Source: Escherichia phage phiWec181
Reading direction: 5' to 3' (one strand)
Length of the DNA stretch: 64,000 nucleotides
Sequence record: LC739534.1
The notes under the pieces are model-generated. The model searched no databases and had not been told where the DNA came from. It was given only the letters and a program-made list of their open reading frames with translations. The stretch's first letter is position 1. Every line of letters starts with the position of its first letter. This document shows, piece by piece, positions 2,289 to 55,856 of the stretch. Made by a program: the position numbers and the translations under genes.

Positions 2289-3127
2289 AAACATATTTAG
2301 TATTGGGTGGTAATGGTCAATTAGGTCAGGCACTGCGTAAAGTGGTGCCGGAGAATGTGACTTTGGTGTATCCAGAAAAGCGTGTAGATATCACCAGTTT
2401 CGAAGCTGTAAGAAAAGCGATCATGGACACCCCAAATATTAACGGTGTTATCAACTGTGCGGCATACACTGCGGTGGACAAAGCAGAGACAGATGTTGAT
2501 GCAGCTATGGCTGTAAATTTACACGGGGCAGCTAATATTGCTGCCTTCTGTAAGGCTTGGGATATTGACATGGTGCATATTTCTACTGACTATGTGTTCA
2601 ACAGCGATAAACCGTTGTTCCATCAGGATGAACCCAACCCTATCAATGTTTACGGGTTATCTAAAAGTTTGGGTGAAGCTGCTGTTCGTGGTATCTACCA
2701 TAAAGCTTTTATTATCCGCACGGCTTCTGTGTATAGCGAGTTTGGTAACAACTTCCTGAAGACTATGGTGTCTCGTTACAACGATGGTCAAAGAGACTTC
2801 TCGGTAGTTGCAGATCAAACATCTCGACCAACTTATGCCCCAGATTTGGCTAAGATGATTTTCCAAGTGTTGGAAACAGGATATAACACCCGTACTTTGC
2901 ATTACGCTGGGAACATCACTGTTTCGTGGCACCAGTTCGCAAAAATGATATTGACACGTATGCCTGAATCTGTTATTATACACCCGACCTCTGCTGCAAC
3001 CTATAATTCGGCAGCGATGCGACCAGCAAAGTCTATACTAATTACGTCTGGTTGGAACGAACCTTCAAGCGTCGGACAAGGTATTGAAGAATCTTTAGCA
3101 GTATTACTTAATAAGGAGAGAGCATGA
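2285..3127 (+). CDS. rfbD: dTDP-4-dehydrorhamnose reductase (RmlD/RfbD)
   Basis: N-terminal LGGNGQLGQAL dinucleotide-binding motif, RmlD-like length; ATGA overlap with rfbC. Confidence 0.8.
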   Translation: MKTYLVLGGNGQLGQALRKVVPENVTLVYPEKRVDITSFEAVRKAIMDTPNINGVINCAAYTAVDKAETDVDAAMAVNLHGAANIAAFCKAWDIDMVHISTDYVFNSDKPLFHQDEPNPINVYGLSKSLGEAAVRGIYHKAFIIRTASVYSEFGNNFLKTMVSRYNDGQRDFSVVADQTSRPTYAPDLAKMIFQVLETGYNTRTLHYAGNITVSWHQFAKMILTRMPESVIIHPTSAATYNSAAMRPAKSILITSGWNEPSSVGQGIEESLAVLLNKERA

Positions 3128-3384
3128 ATTTTGTAATTTACGGCAAACCAAATTGCCAGTTCTGTGAAATGTCCAAACAACTCTTAACTATGCGTGAAAA
3201 AGAGTTTGAATATCTGACATTAGATCAGGACTATGATTTTGAAGTGATGACTCAAGCAGTGATCGCAGCAACAGGAATTGCACCTCGCACCTTCCCGCAG
3301 ATTTTTGTGGAAGAGCTTGGAGCAGTAACCCACGTAGGCGGTTTTACCGAACTGCGTGATTTCATGGCTCAAATTGCGGAGTAA
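3124..3384 (+). CDS. glutaredoxin/thioredoxin-like protein (NrdC/NrdH-like)
   Basis: 86 aa with CQFC redox motif near N-terminus, same layout as T4 NrdC thioredoxin; ATGA overlap with rfbD. Confidence 0.65.
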   Translation: MNFVIYGKPNCQFCEMSKQLLTMREKEFEYLTLDQDYDFEVMTQAVIAATGIAPRTFPQIFVEELGAVTHVGGFTELRDFMAQIAE

Positions 3385-37162: not shown

Positions 37163-37437
37163 TTCATTTATCATCGCTTTTCCCTATCAATTATTCTATA
37201 TATACCTGTTATTTTTGACACCCCCTTTGGTCAAATATTAATCGGCAAAATATCTGGGGGTACTCTATAAAATGATGCCCCCTGTTCCTGCAATTTATCG
37301 AGGAGAATATCATTCGACTATCATCGGCAAAGAGACAGAAAAGCCTTTGGTAGCAAGGATTTATGGCGAGTACGTCAGGACTGCTTAACGCGAATTTTTC
37401 GGCCCCTCCACTTCTGCGAGCCGGAATCCTCAAATAT

Positions 37438-37470
37438 CAATGAGAATAATTATCATTATCATTCGTATTC
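37438..37470. promoter_or_regulatory. Fur-box-like palindromic operator motif
   Basis: AATGAGAATAATTATCATTATCATT: 16/19 identity to Fur consensus GATAATGATAATCATTATC; related copies at 52026..52140. Confidence 0.35.
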
Positions 37471-37859
37471 AATAACTTAGGCGATCTTTTCCCCTGCTAT
37501 AAGGTCGGGCCTAACTTAACCATCACTTTTCAAACAATCCTTTATCAATCAACTACTTAACAACCTAAACATATGATTACTACGGTGTAAAGGTGCCGCC
37601 CATAACAGACTACCTATAAAATAGATGAGAATGATTATTATTCAGACAATTCTTACAACAAATCGACCAACAAATCAAGAATTTTCTTATTTTTATTCAC
37701 GTTTAAGAGAACGTGCTCAACATTCCGCTACGCGTAACGGTTCGCCCCCAAAAGATTAGCCTTTGCTTTCCTGTATATTTATACACTATGTGCAAGGTGT
37801 CGCTACACGCTCGCCTTGCCCCGCATAATCCTTCACTGTGCTAATGATTTCATAGTGCA

Positions 37860-38060
37860 ACAATAACACTTATTATTATATTACGCTTAATTATTCTTAC
37901 ATACAATGCTAATAATAAGCCAGCGTAATTAGTGTAAGCGTAATACGCTTGCAATAATTGCAAGCTACATAATCACAAGAAATAACTATCACCGATAGTT
38001 ATGATTGTGGGGGTGTAGTTGGCTTATTATTAGCTCGCTACGTGTCCGGCGTAGCGTGCT
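37860..38060. repeat. cluster of four distinct perfect palindromes in non-coding DNA
   Basis: AAGCGTA-a-TACGCTT, GCTTGCAAT-a-ATTGCAAGC, ATAACTATC-acc-GATAGTTAT, CGCTACG-N7-CGTAGCG within ~120 bp. Confidence 0.45.
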
Positions 38061-38099
38061 AATGATGAGGCTTGGAATGATTCATTTTGCAATTATTAC

Positions 38100-38480
38100 A
38101 GTCTTCACTATTTTGATAATAGTTGTTCTTTTAATGGTTTCATTTGTTATCGTTAGTTAGTTGGTTGTTTTGTAGTGTTATCGTTATCTTGCTTAGTATT
38201 CATCACGGTTTGATTGTTTGTCGTTATCAATCATCTTTCTATTATTCCTTTGATTATGATTAGTTTGCTTATTGTTTTAGGTTGTTGGTTGGTTAGTTGT
38301 TGCGAACTATTATCAACATTATAGTTATGCACTTATATTGCATAGATACGCAAGGGTAGATGATAATGGTTATCATTGCACTGGAAAGGAAGAAAACAGC
38401 CTTTTTCGGTTGTTTGTTGTTGGTTGTTGATCTATTTTAACCGCTCTAAATAGCTCTCTAACAGCCTGTTTACCTGGGGT
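38100..38480. repeat. G+T-rich low-complexity tract with reiterated GTTATC / GGTTGG motifs (iteron-like)
   Basis: Multiple GTTATC(G/A) and GTTGTTGG repeats; no ORF with SD on either strand. Confidence 0.4.
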
Positions 38481-38583
38481 GTATGGTTATTCGTTTGCTG
38501 GTTGATTAGCTCGATACCGCGATTTATTCAGTTTTGTTCTGTGTCGGTTTTTCATAGGCGGAATCTATCAACATTGTTCGGGC

Positions 38584-38612
38584 AAAAAGAAAGGGCGCTT
38601 GGTGCGCCCCTT
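38584..38612 (-). terminator. rho-independent terminator
   Basis: AAGGGGCGC-ACCAA-GCGCCCTT hairpin followed by TTTCTTTTT on minus strand, just after CDS 38626..39045. Confidence 0.55.
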
Positions 38613-38625
38613 GTTTTGTTGTCGA

Positions 38626-39631: not shown

Positions 39632-39865
39632 CTATTTTTTATAAAATTTTTCTGCTGTGATATTCTTCCCTGTAGGCTTAACCGCTTGCAAAATCTTATC
39701 ATGTGCCGAACGTCCAAAGGAATAAGATCCGTAAACGGTAAACCAATAATCGCCATTGGGTTGCACGGTTACGGCGGCGTATGGTGTACCTCTCTCATTA
39801 TCACCGATAAAGTGTGAAACATTGCCGTTAACGTTCGATTTAGTGCTTTTAATTTGTCCGATCAT
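39632..39865 (-). CDS. hypothetical protein (77 aa)
   Basis: SD TAGGAAT upstream. Confidence 0.5.
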   Translation of the reverse strand: MIGQIKSTKSNVNGNVSHFIGDNERGTPYAAVTVQPNGDYWFTVYGSYSFGRSAHDKILQAVKPTGKNITAEKFYKK

Positions 39866-51032: not shown

Positions 51033-51230
51033 TTATTCAAGCCCTACGATATGTAAGACACGGCGATTAGCAATAGCGTGCTGGTCTTCTGTTATAACGC
51101 CCATTTCTACCAGTGAATCAAGAAAGGAAAGCACCGTGATATATTCGTCATCGGGTACACTCATTTCATTAGTACCGTTTACCACTACGTTGATTTGTCC
51201 TGCTTTCGCTACAATGTGCAATGTTGCCAT
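51033..51230 (-). CDS. hypothetical protein (65 aa)
   Basis: SD CTGGAG upstream; long GC-rich leader. Confidence 0.5.
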   Translation of the reverse strand: MATLHIVAKAGQINVVVNGTNEMSVPDDEYITVLSFLDSLVEMGVITEDQHAIANRRVLHIVGLE

Positions 51231-51365
51231 GATCTTAACTCCAGGTGATGAATGATGTTTTTTGTTGGTTGACGGTGGATTATGGAGATCCTCACCTTTG
51301 CCCGTCCTGCATTGCGCCCTCCTGTTGTTTATTGTCGTTGTGCCTCGCCCCCCTCGACAAGATTA

Positions 51366-51394
51366 ATACTACGCTACCAGGTGCGGAACGTCAA
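51366..51394 (-). promoter_or_regulatory. sigma70-type promoter with long GC-rich leader
   Basis: Minus strand TTGACG, 17-nt spacer, TAGTAT; ~130-nt leader before CDS 51033..51230. Confidence 0.45.
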
Positions 51395-51504
51395 CGACTT
51401 TTTCAATCTTTTTTATTTTCTTTTTGCTTGCTATATATAAAGGAAAGGGCTATCATCTTTCTACCGCGCCAACCAGGGCGCACAACAGAAGAAAGGGCGA
51501 CACC

Positions 51505-51771
51505 ATGACAACTACTACATTACACCTTATGCACTCGTTAGGCTGGCAAGGCGGCACGGTCCACCAGGTAGCAAGCGCAACGGGCTTAAAGGTTGAAACA
51601 GTTCTCAACCTGGGCGATCATAAAGTGGAAGAGATAGACCATTTTGATCCGTTCGCTGATGGTTATCTCTGGGCTTGCAGTGGCGGCGGGGAAAGCAAGA
51701 TACCGCCAGCCGCGCGGGGCGATATGCATTTTTGGTTAGGTGTTCTCTCCTGGCAAGAAAACAAAAAATAA
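51505..51771 (+). CDS. hypothetical protein (88 aa) in GC-rich island, opposite strand to neighbours
   Basis: ATG 51505 preceded by GAAGAAAGGG; codon composition visibly more GC-rich than surrounding genes. Confidence 0.35.
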   Translation: MTTTTLHLMHSLGWQGGTVHQVASATGLKVETVLNLGDHKVEEIDHFDPFADGYLWACSGGGESKIPPAARGDMHFWLGVLSWQENKK

Positions 51772-51773
51772 TC

Positions 51774-51802
51774 TTGACAAGCCCAGGGATCGGGCTTATA
51801 CT
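51774..51802 (+). promoter_or_regulatory. near-consensus sigma70 promoter on + strand with no downstream SD-led ORF
   Basis: TTGACA, exactly 17-nt spacer, TATACT; downstream ~150 nt GC-rich with no convincing ORF. Confidence 0.5.
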
Positions 51803-52025
51803 GTTTTACATACAGAAGAGGAAGCGCCACCCCACGGCGTAAAGGCGGGGCTAACATACCAGGGGCACTGGTTGGAAGGTCGATCGCCGGGAGGCTGGGC
51901 GCTATATATTTGTAAAGAAATGTAAAGATAAAATAATCGCTTGCTTTCCTGGCTGGATCTGTTATTCTTATTACATGGCGAGGGGACACGGGAGCGCGAG
52001 ACAATCACCGGACCTGCCCGTCATT

Positions 52026-52140
52026 CTGCAAATGAGAAAAATTCTCATTTGCAAATAAGACTCATTCGCATTTAATAATTGAATGAGAATCATTCTCATT
52101 CTCATTCGTATTTCGATTTTAAGTGAGAATAATTCTCATT
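52026..52140. promoter_or_regulatory. three palindromic operator-like sites (AATGAGAAT-n-ATTCTCATT), Fur-box-like
   Basis: 27-bp perfect palindrome TGCAAATGAGAA-AAA-TTCTCATTTGCA at 52026..52052; further copies at 52082..52100 and 52121..52140. Confidence 0.45.
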
Positions 52141-52152
52141 TCGGTAATTTTC

Positions 52153-52338
52153 ACGTAAACTTTAGAATTTGCTTTTCAACTTTCACTTTTGTAAAAGCAA
52201 AAAAACTTTAAATACCTGGTGCGCGCGACTTTTTAAAAAATTTTTCTCGGTTTTTTGCTTTGAAATCTGGCCCACCAATTTGAGATAGTGTACGTAAACT
52301 TTAGAATTTGGTTTTGGATTCTCACTTTTGTAAACTCG
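52153..52338. repeat. pair of ~46-bp direct repeats in non-coding DNA
   Basis: ACGTAAACTTTAGAATTTG(C/G)TTTT...TTCTCACTTTTGTAAA at 52153..52198 and 52292..52338; TTGAGATAGT also repeated. Confidence 0.45.
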
Positions 52339-52483
52339 TAAAAAGTTTAAATAATTGTAGGGATTTTGAGATAGTTTGCTTGTAAGGTTTGAGATAATCC
52401 TTCCCGAAGATGTTACGCAGCCTACAGCCTACCTGAATGCTCGTCTAACGAGATTAACTCTAAAAGATGAGTGTTGGTGTAGC

Positions 52484-52521
52484 TAAAGAGAAAAGGCTCT
52501 CTACGGTGTTGTAGGAGCCTT
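52484..52521 (-). terminator. rho-independent terminator after NADAR gene
   Basis: AAGGCTC-N15-GAGCCTT hairpin followed by TTTTCTCTTT on minus strand. Confidence 0.45.
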
Positions 52522-52591
52522 ATTTCTGTGGCACAAAGTTGACGTATTCTTTTTAAAAACGAATTTTTTCAAAATATCACGAATATCGCCT

Positions 52592-53119
52592 TTATGGTAT
52601 TTTGGCTGGGAACAGGATTTTAATCAGATTGTTGTGGTATTGTCCTAAAAGATTCTGCCCTTTCCAGTTGGCAGGATTAAGCACCCCTGGTTCGTACATA
52701 CCCATTCCAATTCCGTAAACCTTATCATAAGGACTCGCCTCAACGAACGTTTTGAATTGGTACAGTCGCAAGTCAGAATAAAGATCAGGGTTCTGTGTAT
52801 ACTTCAAGCATAAGCCTCGCATTACGATACGCTCTCGGTACTCTTCCCACATGTCATTATTAAAACCAGACACCGCTCGACCCATGCGCTTGTAGTATGC
52901 CTGTCCCTTCTCGTCGTCACGCTTCATTGAGTGATCAAGGATAGCTGCTGCGATTACCTGATCCTTGAACAGCAAAGCCTTACGCCACATCATGTATTGC
53001 TCTACACAACAGAAAGTTTCATTGTACCCTGGTTCCGTCTCTGTGAATGGTGCAATGTACCAATTGCTAAACACATCTTTATGTGAAAAGAAGAATACAT
53101 ATTCATTAGTTATTCGCAT
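52592..53119 (-). CDS. NADAR-domain protein (YbiA-like, NAD/ADP-ribose processing family)
   Basis: N-terminal FFFSHKDVFSNWY and overall ~175 aa layout resemble NADAR/DUF1768 (YbiA). Confidence 0.65.
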   Translation of the reverse strand: MRITNEYVFFFSHKDVFSNWYIAPFTETEPGYNETFCCVEQYMMWRKALLFKDQVIAAAILDHSMKRDDEKGQAYYKRMGRAVSGFNNDMWEEYRERIVMRGLCLKYTQNPDLYSDLRLYQFKTFVEASPYDKVYGIGMGMYEPGVLNPANWKGQNLLGQYHNNLIKILFPAKIP

Positions 53120-53307: not shown

Positions 53308-53673
53308 TTAGTCCATCCACCAGTAGCCATAAACTGCGTCTGCGTCGATGAGTTTGTGTTTGTTGTTCCGCATGTAGTCTAAGATAAGTAGACGTTTATT
53401 GTATCTGGAGAGATTATGACCCTCTTTTCCGCCATAGTCAAAATATTTTGCAAGACTTTTACACTCAAACAAAATCAGTTCGGGAGTTTCTTCACATTGG
53501 TCTGTCTGGTACACTTGACGGATGATCATGTATACGTCATCGTCTTCCGCTAAGTGCTCTACTGGTCCACACCCAGCAGGAATAAATTCATAGTCCCATC
53601 GAATCAGATGTTTCTCTACTGCTTCAAAGAAATCCATTTTTTCGCTACGCATGATCTGAACATCAATTAACAT
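53308..53673 (-). CDS. hypothetical protein (121 aa)
   Basis: SD CAGGAGGAAAA upstream. Confidence 0.5.
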   Translation of the reverse strand: MLIDVQIMRSEKMDFFEAVEKHLIRWDYEFIPAGCGPVEHLAEDDDVYMIIRQVYQTDQCEETPELILFECKSLAKYFDYGGKEGHNLSRYNKRLLILDYMRNNKHKLIDADAVYGYWWMD

Positions 53674-54679
53674 AATTTTCCTCCTGTCTCATTATTCCAC
53701 CTGCTTGGTTGATAGCACTTAAGACAACAGCCAAATCCTCACGCAGGAAGGTTTCACTATGACCGTCTTTCATGTGCAACGCTTCCACACAGCCGATAGA
53801 CGGTAGGATCTGATCAGTCTTAGATTTTAGCTTACTCTCTAACGCCCTGCAAGCCTGGTAGGACGGCAGATCAAACAATGCTACACGTTGCATAAAGTAG
53901 TTATTATTTGCATTCTGAATCTTCAAACGTATATCACTATCCTTTGCAATCCCCAGCTTGAAAGCTCCCGTATCTTCTCCATACTCATCAAGGATAACGT
54001 TGATGTAAAATTCTTGCTGTGATCTGCCTTTACATTCAGAACAACCATTCCCACTTAGATACTTATTAGGTGTTATCGTTTGTTCTCCGTGCTCACTACA
54101 TAAATATTTAAACTTAGACATGGTTCCCACCTTACCAACGAACCCTATAAACTGGTCCCCTCGTTCCTGGCAAGCTTCAGTCATACGGAAAATCCATTGC
54201 GCAGGAGTGTAACGATGGTTTTTAGAACAACGGCAAGCAAGCAGCCCATCTCTAAGACTGCTCCTCGTTACTTCAAACCTACCGTTACACACGCCAGCCT
54301 TTACATATTCGTCATGAGAACATACGGAACACTTAACTATCCAATAAGCCGCCCATCCTTTACTATCTAATCTATCACTACGATAATACTCACGCGGAAC
54401 GTTATCAGGACACGCTTTGTTAAAGGTTGTGATATGGATTGAATCATCAATTAAACATGTTTGCCTTATTGCTTCCACCCTACAACCTTTACAACCACTT
54501 CCTATTTTAGCATTATCTATAGAAGTTGTTCTCCATTCCCCATGTATAGAACATTCACAGGTTAGTTTAGTGCGTGCCCCCTTCCATTCACCATGCCACC
54601 CCGTAATGGTCCACGGTTTATCCTGGTAAGCTTGTTCTATTTCTTCCTGATATTCCTCCCAACTTTTAGCCCTCATCAT
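53663..54679 (-). CDS. T5orf172-like (GIY-YIG-related) domain protein with N-terminal CxxC zinc-ribbon repeats
   Basis: Repeated CxxC pairs, then C-terminal KLGIAKD...R...KDGHSETF resembling T5orf172; paralog of CDS 58247..59200. Confidence 0.5.
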   Translation of the reverse strand: MMRAKSWEEYQEEIEQAYQDKPWTITGWHGEWKGARTKLTCECSIHGEWRTTSIDNAKIGSGCKGCRVEAIRQTCLIDDSIHITTFNKACPDNVPREYYRSDRLDSKGWAAYWIVKCSVCSHDEYVKAGVCNGRFEVTRSSLRDGLLACRCSKNHRYTPAQWIFRMTEACQERGDQFIGFVGKVGTMSKFKYLCSEHGEQTITPNKYLSGNGCSECKGRSQQEFYINVILDEYGEDTGAFKLGIAKDSDIRLKIQNANNNYFMQRVALFDLPSYQACRALESKLKSKTDQILPSIGCVEALHMKDGHSETFLREDLAVVLSAINQAGGIMRQEENYVN

Positions 54680-54716: not shown

Positions 54717-55856
54717 TTAGAACACGCTACTTAAGGTTGCAGATCGTGTAGTGGTTGGTTCCAGAACCACACGGAACGTATCCCCAGGTTTATCGCTCAC
54801 TACTACAATCTTACCACCTTCGATCAGGTCACACTTCAAACCTTCGGCAGTAGCTTTCAGGTCGATGCGTGGATCGCCATCATCATCCAGGATAACGTAG
54901 CTGCTATCTTCGAGAGGCTCCAGTTCTTCGTCTTTCACGGCTTCCAGGTAGATGTTCAGTTCACATGCACCAGACAAGAACTTGGTAGGAGTGAACTCAT
55001 GCCAGTTGTTGACCCAGTTAGGCTTGATAGCTTTACCGTTGACAACAATAGAGCTAATCGTCCAGCGTGCATCGTTACCCAGAGAGATACCCATCATCTC
55101 CAGACAGGTCTTGAACGTCATTTTCGGATAGAAGTTTAACTCTTCTACGATCCCTTGAATAACATCGAAAGACAGTTCAGTGCTAACATCCCACAAACGT
55201 TGGAAGCTTTCAACATGTTTGCGATTCTTCAGATTCTTGTCCAGGTAGTCCAGCATAGTTTCAATAGACAGTTTGTCGTAGTTGAAGCTATAGAAGATAC
55301 GGCTCGGACGGTTGACGAAGTATTCCGAGATGTATCCGCTGTTCTTTGTCAGCATGAACAGTTTGTTACCGCTACCTGTGCCATCCAGCAGAGTCAGCAG
55401 TGCTTCCTGATCTTCCTTCTTGGAATACACTTTGTCGAACTCATCGAACAGTACTACTGCGCGTTCAGAGATCTTACTCATGAACTCCAGGAAATTGGCA
55501 TCAGAATATGGCTGCGTTACCAGAATAGTTGGGATTCCCAGGTCTTCCGCTTCCAACAGAGTGTTACTGATCAGTTTTGCCAGCATTGTCTTGCCACTGC
55601 CTTTTGTACCCGACAACAGGACACCTGTGTTCTTACCTTCTTTACTACGACGAGCGAAGGTACGGATAACGTGGGCTGCACGTTCTTTGGTTTCCCCGTA
55701 CAGGCGATCAGGAATCGTGAACTTATCAGCGCGACTAAGAGAATAGTTACCATGTGGATCACAATTGACAGTCCAAACGCCAGCGGGGAGTTTATCAACC
55801 TCTACACCAAAATCTTTATTAACAATTGCAACATCCCCATAAACTGTGTATTTCAT
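54717..55856 (-). CDS. AAA+ family ATPase
   Basis: Walker A GTKGSGKT and Walker B VVLFDEFD; SD AGAGGAGAAAG upstream. Confidence 0.7.
   Translation of the reverse strand: MKYTVYGDVAIVNKDFGVEVDKLPAGVWTVNCDPHGNYSLSRADKFTIPDRLYGETKERAAHVIRTFARRSKEGKNTGVLLSGTKGSGKTMLAKLISNTLLEAEDLGIPTILVTQPYSDANFLEFMSKISERAVVLFDEFDKVYSKKEDQEALLTLLDGTGSGNKLFMLTKNSGYISEYFVNRPSRIFYSFNYDKLSIETMLDYLDKNLKNRKHVESFQRLWDVSTELSFDVIQGIVEELNFYPKMTFKTCLEMMGISLGNDARWTISSIVVNGKAIKPNWVNNWHEFTPTKFLSGACELNIYLEAVKDEELEPLEDSSYVILDDDGDPRIDLKATAEGLKCDLIEGGKIVVVSDKPGDTFRVVLEPTTTRSATLSSVF

Follow-up and report, generated by a model that had tools for sequence, protein, structure and literature searches.

What does a near-consensus promoter transcribe where no convincing gene follows it? 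The question arises from a 64,000-nucleotide stretch of Escherichia phage phiWec181 (sequence record LC739534.1), hereafter the window. An earlier note on this DNA had described an island rich in guanine and cytosine (GC) at 51240-51960, holding a + strand open reading frame (ORF) and, directly after it, a textbook promoter, and had proposed either a horizontally acquired module or a small structured RNA gene. The best reading of the sequence appears to us to be an undescribed early, sigma-70-driven structured non-coding RNA. The candidate, which we call RNA-A, is a GC-rich element of ~98 nucleotides (nt) on the + strand at 51808-51905, delimited by conservation and a covariance model, and it starts ~6-8 nt past the -10 hexamer of the promoter (P1, 51774-51802, + strand). 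We are highly confident that the locus holds a functional non-coding element, and think it probable from the sequence that this element acts as an RNA made from the + strand.

The composition of the island is unusual, as had been claimed. Its GC content was computed at 49.0%, against a window mean of 41.9% (standard deviation 2.3% in 721-nt windows), placing it at the 99.8th percentile, and the peak among the 721-nt windows starts at 51301. The excess is unevenly spread. The ORF (51505-51771) has 50% GC, RNA-A 62%, which ranks at the 99.99th percentile among 98-nt windows, and a further block, RNA-B (51973-52029), 65%. This second block begins just past 51960, where the earlier note had ended the island. 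A spacer of 28% GC separates the two blocks and repeats of 33% GC follow the second. The promoter was described correctly, but the GC-rich sequence downstream of it, put at ~150 nt, extends for only ~100 nt before the AT-rich spacer begins. In the records of relatives the region 51231-52591 is a 1.36-kb gap between leftward genes, in which the annotation consists of either a + strand 88-amino acid (aa) ORF (phiWec179, anhysbys and phi92) or a - strand 113-aa ORF (phAPEC8), with no other feature. The 88-aa ORF is the one at 51505-51771, and it does run against all its neighbours, the genes on both sides lying on the - strand.

Conservation is the first line of evidence for RNA-A. Over 1.6 kb around the island the window shares 100% identity with Escherichia phages phiWec179 and phiWec186, and is 82-97% identical to many Phapecoctavirus genomes (Stephanstirmvirinae). 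In phages BI-EHEC, DE16 and anhysbys identity is 96-97% across the 257 nt that run from the promoter to 52030, compared with 82-84% for the surrounding 1.6 kb, and the element is more conserved than the neighbouring genes. Judged from these alignments, RNA-A is under very strong purifying selection. Matches to the element were found in 330 phage records, where the annotated feature is almost always 'none'. They come from the Stephanstirmvirinae, from the Vequintavirinae genera Seunavirus and Mydovirus, and from other phages of Cronobacter, Pectobacterium, Klebsiella, Enterobacter and Erwinia, with one copy of RNA-A per genome in the Stephanstirmvirinae and most Vequintavirinae. In the window the covariance model gives a single RNA-A match of 118.6 bits, with the runner-up at 10 bits; across genomes it gives matches of 69-136 bits, one per genome and nothing intermediate. 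Metagenomic contigs of ~145-152 kb yielded 26 more copies, all of at least 78 bits, with none weaker at E 0.01. For IMG/VR a loose DNA pattern gave mostly chance matches, and a tighter pattern together with the covariance model separated the true from the chance. When one genome per bacterial species was searched the sole true match was a 4-kb contig of a metagenome-assembled genome, which is probably phage DNA. A 20-bit match in Sulfitobacter overlaps an ORF and was judged to be chance.

The earlier note had named an Rfam search as a check, and this returned nothing: Rfam 15 gave no match in the whole window at gathering thresholds, and none over 51774-52029 even at E<=10. A tRNA and tmRNA search found none. 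A BLAST search with the element likewise gave no match in 5,426 E. coli genomes, so in sequence RNA-A neither copies nor mimics a host RNA. We found no paper describing RNA-A, or an origin or transcriptome, for these phages. Because the RNA element keeps its syntenic position throughout two phage subfamilies, ancient vertical inheritance is indicated, and the idea of a horizontally acquired module finds no support for the element; from the sequences, horizontal exchange is plausible for the ORF slot only. Two lineages carry insertions here. In one contig (L153, 6276-7135) a 197-aa HNH endonuclease-like ORF (phrog_953, E 8e-79) lies between two RNA-A copies, the first canonical minus its 3' tail and the second divergent with a promoter of its own. 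In another (L010, 3494-3958) a 154-aa ORF with a weak HNH match takes the place of the 3' half of RNA-B. From their sequences these look like HNH-like genes homing into a conserved target, and such insertions in two lineages are as expected if the element is one.

Could the conservation be that of an ordinary region, either a - strand coding gene or a GC-rich spacer that lies by chance beside a chance promoter? A 113-aa ORF at 51663-52004 (-) does exist, overlapping both RNA-A and RNA-B, and is annotated in phAPEC8 as hypothetical protein phAPEC8_00257 (gene 00257), but other annotators leave it out. It is one of three mechanical ORFs that span RNA-A, together with 51740-51925 (+) and 51796-52008 (-), and none of them matches a family in Pfam or PHROG. 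Close relatives differ by 1, 2 or 3 nt in the loop of the P3 hairpin of RNA-A (described below), and since indels of 1-2 nt shift the frame of all three ORFs, RNA-A cannot be coding. Lacking a family match and frameshifted in close relatives, phAPEC8_00257 is probably a spurious gene call. With a conservation that exceeds that of the neighbouring genes, we regard the ordinary explanation as extremely improbable. The + strand offers no better gene. The earlier note had seen no convincing ORF led by a Shine-Dalgarno sequence downstream of the promoter, and the comparison bears this out: none is conserved after P1, and there is no supported + strand ORF of at least 40 aa from 51803 to the terminator near 52530.

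The second line of evidence is the promoter. P1 (TTGACA-N17-TATACT) was identified by scan and conservation; it matches the consensus at 11 of 12 positions and is the best in the region, where the scan returned 11 promoter-like sites against 3.1 expected. The -35/-10 pair is kept in 36 of 37 distinct upstream sequences, with 9-12 of 12 matches and a spacing of 17-18 nt. The distance from promoter to RNA-A is likewise fixed across 36 of 37 distinct relatives. The spacer of P1 carries a GC hairpin (51779-51797), which in the window is followed by ATACTGTTTT and was also scored as terminator-like for ORF88, the 88-aa ORF upstream. A GC-rich hairpin is always present in the spacer, with a lineage-specific sequence (for example AAGCCCAGGGATCGGGCTT, GGCCCGGCGAAAGCTGGGC and GCCAGGCGCAAGCCTGG), and in 36 of the 37 relatives it is conserved as a structure and not as a sequence. 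As this hairpin sits inside the promoter spacer, P1 is best described as a composite terminator/promoter. Several promoters with a hairpin in the spacer are present in one metagenomic phage contig (L007).

The third line of evidence is the predicted fold. RNA-A was aligned first with MAFFT (30 distinct sequences) and then with the covariance model (58 matches, 49 distinct). Two helices are suggested by compensatory changes. Helix P2 (51830-51850, +) pairs CCCC at 51830-51833 with GGGG at 51847-51850 around a loop that holds an invariant CGGCG. A C-G pair is replaced by A-U in nine sequences (alignment columns 32/47), and divergent lineages have CCAA/UUGG or CCAG/CUGG. Helix P3 (51855-51874, +) is a hairpin of variable length, in which ACCAG (51858-51862) pairs with CUGGU (51868-51872) with two outer pairs. 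It is 93% paired, with changes on both sides in six of seven pairs; its length and sequence vary while the pairing is kept, and divergent members have GAAA or GAAG loops. Over P2 and P3 together 91% of cells are paired in the 49 distinct sequences, and both-side changes occur in 8 pairs (37 cells). None of 500 shuffled controls reached the observed covariation, a test that overstates significance because the sequences are related, and sliding the partners by 1-3 columns reduced pairing to 14-46%. A further helix, a possible pseudoknot (51835-51889, +), would join the CGGCG of the P2 loop (51835-51839) to CGCCG at 51885-51889, 46 nt away. It is 99% pairable and invariant save for four G-U cells, and RNAalifold also selects it. 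Long invariant stretches of RNA-A lie unpaired. A closing helix (AGCGCC/GGCGCU, itself termed P1) was rejected, being present in the window but not conserved, and a long-range stem followed by AUAUAUUUG is confined to the window's variant. The + strand is favoured because, read on the other strand, seven G-U cells would become A-C mismatches. Conservation above the flanks, a kept promoter, frameshifting indels, two compensatory helices and this + strand G-U bias all speak for the small structured RNA gene that the earlier note had suggested.

What lies downstream of RNA-A? The AT-rich spacer contains in the alignments a direct repeat, TGTAAAG-N4-TGTAAAG (51911-51928, +), whose copies are one helical turn apart, just upstream of a putative second promoter. 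The repeat is kept from Phapecoctavirus to Seunavirus and divergent metagenomic lineages, and it may serve as an upstream promoter element or as a site for a protein. The second promoter (TTGCTT-16-TATTCT, 51941-51968, +), found by sequence reading and alignment, has 7 of 12 matches in the window and was not called by the promoter scan; its position is conserved and it is stronger in relatives (TTGACC-17-GATAAT in L010). RNA-B follows on the + strand, a block recognised by conservation, with an invariant GAGACAAWCACC stretch and the 3' end TGCCCGTCATTC. It is present even in rV5-type phages without RNA-A. RNAalifold found no consensus structure for RNA-B, which we treat as a conserved sequence block of unproven structure. 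Vequintavirus phages lack RNA-A, and another promoter-driven GC-rich segment occupies the slot (at 1070-1300 of L021, the rV5-like Escherichia phage JES2013). Within this segment ACGGCAGGCACCGGTGA repeats in inverted form the 3' half of RNA-B (TCACCGGGCCTGCCCGT), which lies ~150 nt downstream; in rV5-like phages the inverted copy is a 17-mer. No inverted copy of this half is present in the window.

Beyond RNA-B the DNA becomes rich in repeats. A repeat search revealed four 21-bp palindromes (AAATGAGAAnAATTCTCATTT, core TGAGAATnATTCTCA) at 52030-52141. The core occurs nine times in the window, where 1.7 occurrences are expected, and the sites fall into two clusters (52030-52141 and 37441-38375), and equivalent palindromes are found in all enterobacterial relatives. 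One palindrome, at 52080-52108, is terminator-like. An AT-rich, iteron-like region follows at 52153-52398 (33% GC), with two 62-nt direct repeats (starting at 52153 and 52292) that are 84% identical and 139 nt apart, and with three TTTGAGATAGT/AAT motifs. In the corresponding position Seunavirus and Mydovirus carry three iterons of ~65 nt that include AAAAATTTTTTCG, and the motif TTTGAGATAAT is common to both subfamilies. An inverted repeat at 52482-52532 forms a hairpin flanked on either side by a T-run (fold energies -28.4 and -20.6 kcal/mol), where the phAPEC8 record has an annotated terminator. Its sequence makes it likely to be a bidirectional terminator, serving the rightward non-coding unit as well as the leftward NADAR operon. 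The order of promoter, RNA-A, RNA-B or its substitute, palindromes and ~65-nt AT-rich iterons recurs in Seunavirus, Mydovirus, phi92 and divergent metagenomic lineages; despite this common order the repeat sequences differ by lineage.

One explanation for such an arrangement is that the conserved blocks act as DNA, as protein sites or single-strand hairpins in an origin or another cis-acting region (for example in loading a primosome or helicase), and that the promoter only opens the DNA. This would suit the conserved positions, most of which are invariant rather than covarying, and RNA-B, which shows no structural covariation. The inverted RNA-B 17-mer ~150 bp upstream in rV5-like phages is also what a DNA site might look like, and palindromes and iterons adjoin the blocks. 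The variable length of P3, the compensatory changes and the G-U pairs, however, fit a folded strand of + polarity, and the fixed promoter distance suggests that the transcript start matters. We therefore consider a role as DNA unlikely. Another explanation takes its cue from the palindromes. RNA-A could be a processive antitermination signal acting in cis, or an RNA that modifies RNA polymerase, like put of phage HK022, and so allow read-through of the palindromes and of proteins bound to them. A structured RNA does follow a strong promoter directly, and several hairpin-forming palindromes come after it, with the terminator-like one among them. Against this, there is no downstream operon to benefit, the unit ending at the terminator ~700 nt on, and there is no similarity to any Rfam family. 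The put fold also consists of two stems, whereas RNA-A is predicted to have a short helix, a variable hairpin and a possible pseudoknot. A put-like function is in our judgement quite improbable.

We instead favour, tentatively and at somewhat less than an even chance, a reading in which an early non-coding transcript begins with RNA-A and RNA-B as its structured 5' part and acts in cis on DNA that resembles an origin. The island would then be a mostly non-coding module, transcribed rightward and lying between early operons of a Phapecoctavirus genome that run leftward. P1 would be fired by the host RNA polymerase immediately after infection, and transcription from P1, probably also from the weaker second promoter, would run through RNA-B, enter the ~500-bp AT-rich palindrome and iteron region and end at the bidirectional terminator. 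The folded RNA-A/RNA-B could act in cis on the adjacent repeats, either through activation by transcription or as a structured primer or R-loop. Promoters directed into AT-rich, ORF-free, repeat-bearing DNA are the layout of an origin that is primed or activated by a transcript, and P1 with the 33% GC repeats has this layout. In every lineage RNA-A points into RNA-B or into AT-rich iterons. Taken alone, the link to an origin is doubtful, though it deserves serious consideration.

Several observations count against this reading. No DnaA box was found in 51200-52600, cumulative GC skew has no sign change at the locus, and the GC skew of RNA-A (an excess of G over C) is unremarkable, at the 84th percentile. 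The rV5 paper reported an unsuccessful search for an origin by skew and noted only a 'non-coding' box. The fold itself is also open to criticism. P2 has only 3-4 bp, with two exceptions, and the larger alignment was fitted to the covariance model. The pseudoknot is without covariation support because both of its sides are invariant. The z-scores of the minimum free energy are modest (-1.9 for the + strand and -1.8 for the - strand). A proposed closing stem for RNA-B is 86% pairable, with covariation not above that of shuffled controls. There is, moreover, no Rho-independent terminator directly after RNA-A and no + strand terminator-like site between 51803 and 52080, so the size of RNA-A is not fixed by the sequence.

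This last point also bears on whether RNA-A, with or without RNA-B, is instead a trans-acting early RNA, either a regulator of host or phage mRNAs or a decoy or sponge for a host protein, a defence effector or a small molecule, in which case its place beside the repeats would be incidental. A classical small RNA (sRNA) has its own promoter, as RNA-A has in P1, and a Rho-independent terminator, and there is none after RNA-A to set an sRNA 3' end. The strong sigma-70 promoter among early host-takeover genes, and the compact fold with long invariant unpaired stretches typical of partner-binding RNAs, would both be natural for a trans-acting RNA. The different GC-rich RNA in the slot of rV5-type phages looks like exchangeable cargo, and in the rV5-like phage PhiTE a non-coding RNA from another locus, pseudo-ToxI, is already known to counter ToxIN (PMC3475682). 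Neither a homologue nor an obvious target emerged from the 5,426 E. coli genomes, however, and tandem repeats like those of type III antitoxins are missing; an antitoxin-like RNA of this type was rejected when no tandem repeat was found in 51774-52021. A trans-acting role would also leave unexplained the strict synteny and the orientation towards the iterons in every lineage. We regard it as possible, although improbable as it stands, and nearly as likely as an origin-linked transcript.

The small gene upstream is a separate matter. ORF88 (51505-51771, +; 88 aa), which the ORF list gives with an upstream TTG start at 51424, matches phrog_19316 end to end (E 2e-58) and has 21 full-length database homologues with identities down to 45%. 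In phage anhysbys the ORF88 protein is 69% identical, against 96-97% for the adjoining RNA element. Its N-terminal region has the invariant motif L-x-x-L-G-W-Q-G-G-T-V-H-Q-V-A-x-x-T-G-L, and distant relatives from IMG/VR keep LGWQGGTVHQVA. An AlphaFold model is all-alpha, with five helices and a mean predicted local distance difference test (pLDDT) score of 93.5, and a fold search with it gave no significant match to any known fold. We rejected ORF88 as a helix-turn-helix DNA-binding protein, as it has no significant sequence or fold match to such domains. On the strength of its homologues and of this confident model, ORF88 is a real gene. The earlier note's 'no obvious coding target' consequently holds for the promoter, while the ORF upstream has proved to be coding. 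A promoter-like site upstream of ORF88 (TTGCTA-17-TATCAT, 51428-51456, +; 9 of 12 matches) is by its position a putative promoter for it. The ORF88 family is present in 150 phage records, mostly of Stephanstirmvirinae, against 330 for the RNA element, and in Seunavirus and Mydovirus an unrelated small + strand ORF occupies its slot, so ORF88 is an exchangeable accessory gene and not an obligatory partner of RNA-A. In L007, an IMG/VR phage contig of 152 kb, RNA-A lies next to the ORF88 homologue (2766-3246) but the two diverge, with their promoters back-to-back instead of in tandem.

The neighbouring DNA contains further features. A promoter-like site on the - strand (TTGACG-17-TAGTAT, 51366-51394; 9 of 12 matches), for the leftward early gene 51033-51230, forms a divergent pair with that of ORF88, and the phAPEC8 record has a PHIRE promoter annotated upstream of the homologue of this gene. 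On the other side the leftward gene 52592-53119 (-) encodes a NADAR-domain protein (Pfam E 1e-33), called GTP cyclohydrolase II in some records, and 53663-54679 (-) and 54717-55856 (-) encode a CapR homology domain protein and an AAA ATPase. A second ORF-free, AT-rich region of ~1.45 kb lies at 37170-38625, with odd GT-rich repeats and sites like the Fur box. Many deposited Phapecoctavirus records have homologous DNA at their extreme ends, and terminal repeats are annotated in phi92; this region probably adjoins the physical ends of the genome. As the 343-bp terminal repeats annotated in phi92 are ~11 kb away, the RNA-A locus is unlikely to be the packaging site.

The myoviruses that resemble rV5, phi92, phAPEC8 and PVP-SE1 are among the broad-host-range phages that are most often isolated and most often put forward as therapy for E. 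coli, Salmonella, Klebsiella and Cronobacter. The element is the most conserved non-coding sequence of its region and occurs in more than 300 deposited genomes, where it is almost never annotated. RNA-A may represent an undescribed family of phage-encoded, promoter-driven structured RNA, and it accounts for spurious 'hypothetical protein' calls such as phAPEC8_00257. The covariance model can now be used to annotate it. Should RNA-A be linked to an origin, it would offer a handle to map and engineer replication in this phage group, and should it be a decoy or regulator it would add to the phage RNAs a new family whose defined fold can be tested.

How does the locus compare with known systems? 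The promoter recalls PeSL, the composite promoter-terminator motifs of T4-like phages (PMC4122927). P1 has the sigma-70 hexamers and the embedded stem-loop that mark these motifs: in both, an early sigma-70-type promoter with a GC-rich stem-loop lies between small early genes, the stem-loop doubles as terminator of the upstream gene, and the motif flanks a slot in which unrelated ORFs are exchanged (here ORF88 and the Seunavirus ORF). PeSL occur in T4-like phages, however, in many copies per genome that mediate modular shuffling, whereas our comparison is made from the single copy of P1 in the window, in Stephanstirmvirinae and Vequintavirinae. The hairpin sequence of P1 also varies between phages, and the likeness covers the promoter only and not RNA-A. 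Pseudo-ToxI of PhiTE, an intergenic non-coding RNA with a tandem 36-nt repeat that is expressed in infection (PMC3475682), comes from the same broad phage group and is a precedent for an anti-defence RNA. It lies at 106,714-106,772 of PhiTE, whereas the RNA-A homologue lies at ~39,680-39,818, and RNA-A has neither the tandem repeat nor sequence similarity to pseudo-ToxI. In predicted form, RNA-A resembles the pseudoknotted riboswitch aptamers, which are also ~80-100 nt long and combine a short helix, with a loop able to pair with the 3' tail, with a variable peripheral hairpin and invariant joining regions. Unlike riboswitches it has no Rfam riboswitch match, no expression platform and no downstream + strand gene. 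As no regulated + strand gene lies between 51803 and the terminator near 52530, we rejected a riboswitch.

The palindromes resemble the Fur box at the sequence level. The Fur box of Enterobacteria has a 7-1-7 consensus, TGATAATnATTATCA, and the palindrome core TGAGAATnATTCTCA is 1-2 mismatches from the 15-bp 7-1-7 core. Relatives carry TGATAATGATTCTCA and TGAGAATGATTATCA, a site at 37442-37460 (GATAATGATAATTATTCTC) is two mismatches from the classical 19-bp Fur box, and Fur-box-like palindromes are kept in phages of E. coli, Salmonella, Klebsiella, Cronobacter and Pectobacterium. BLAST of the palindromes against E. coli genomes gave no confirmation of Fur-box identity. A divergent group of phages (L130-type) has different repeats at this place, which makes a phage-encoded binder equally possible as Fur. 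It would be bold, and we think it a long shot, to propose that RNA-A is a new class of pseudoknotted RNA that licenses or primes an unmapped origin common to all rV5-, phi92- and PVP-SE1-like phages, and that the palindromes couple this origin, or read-through of the RNA, to Fur. If true, replication of the phage DNA would be gated by the metal sensor of the host, or would titrate it.

The closest parallels in layout are found among replication origins. In ColE1, RNA II must fold to form the primer hybrid. The primary origin of T7 consists of the tandem phi1.1A/B promoters and an AT-rich segment, and oriF and oriG of T4 of a promoter and an unwinding element. The RNA-A locus has no sequence similarity to any of these, and the likeness is one of layout only, with one promoter, or two in tandem, facing a segment that is AT-rich, free of ORFs and furnished with repeats and, as for RNA II, what appears to be a conserved folded RNA between the promoter and the AT-rich DNA.

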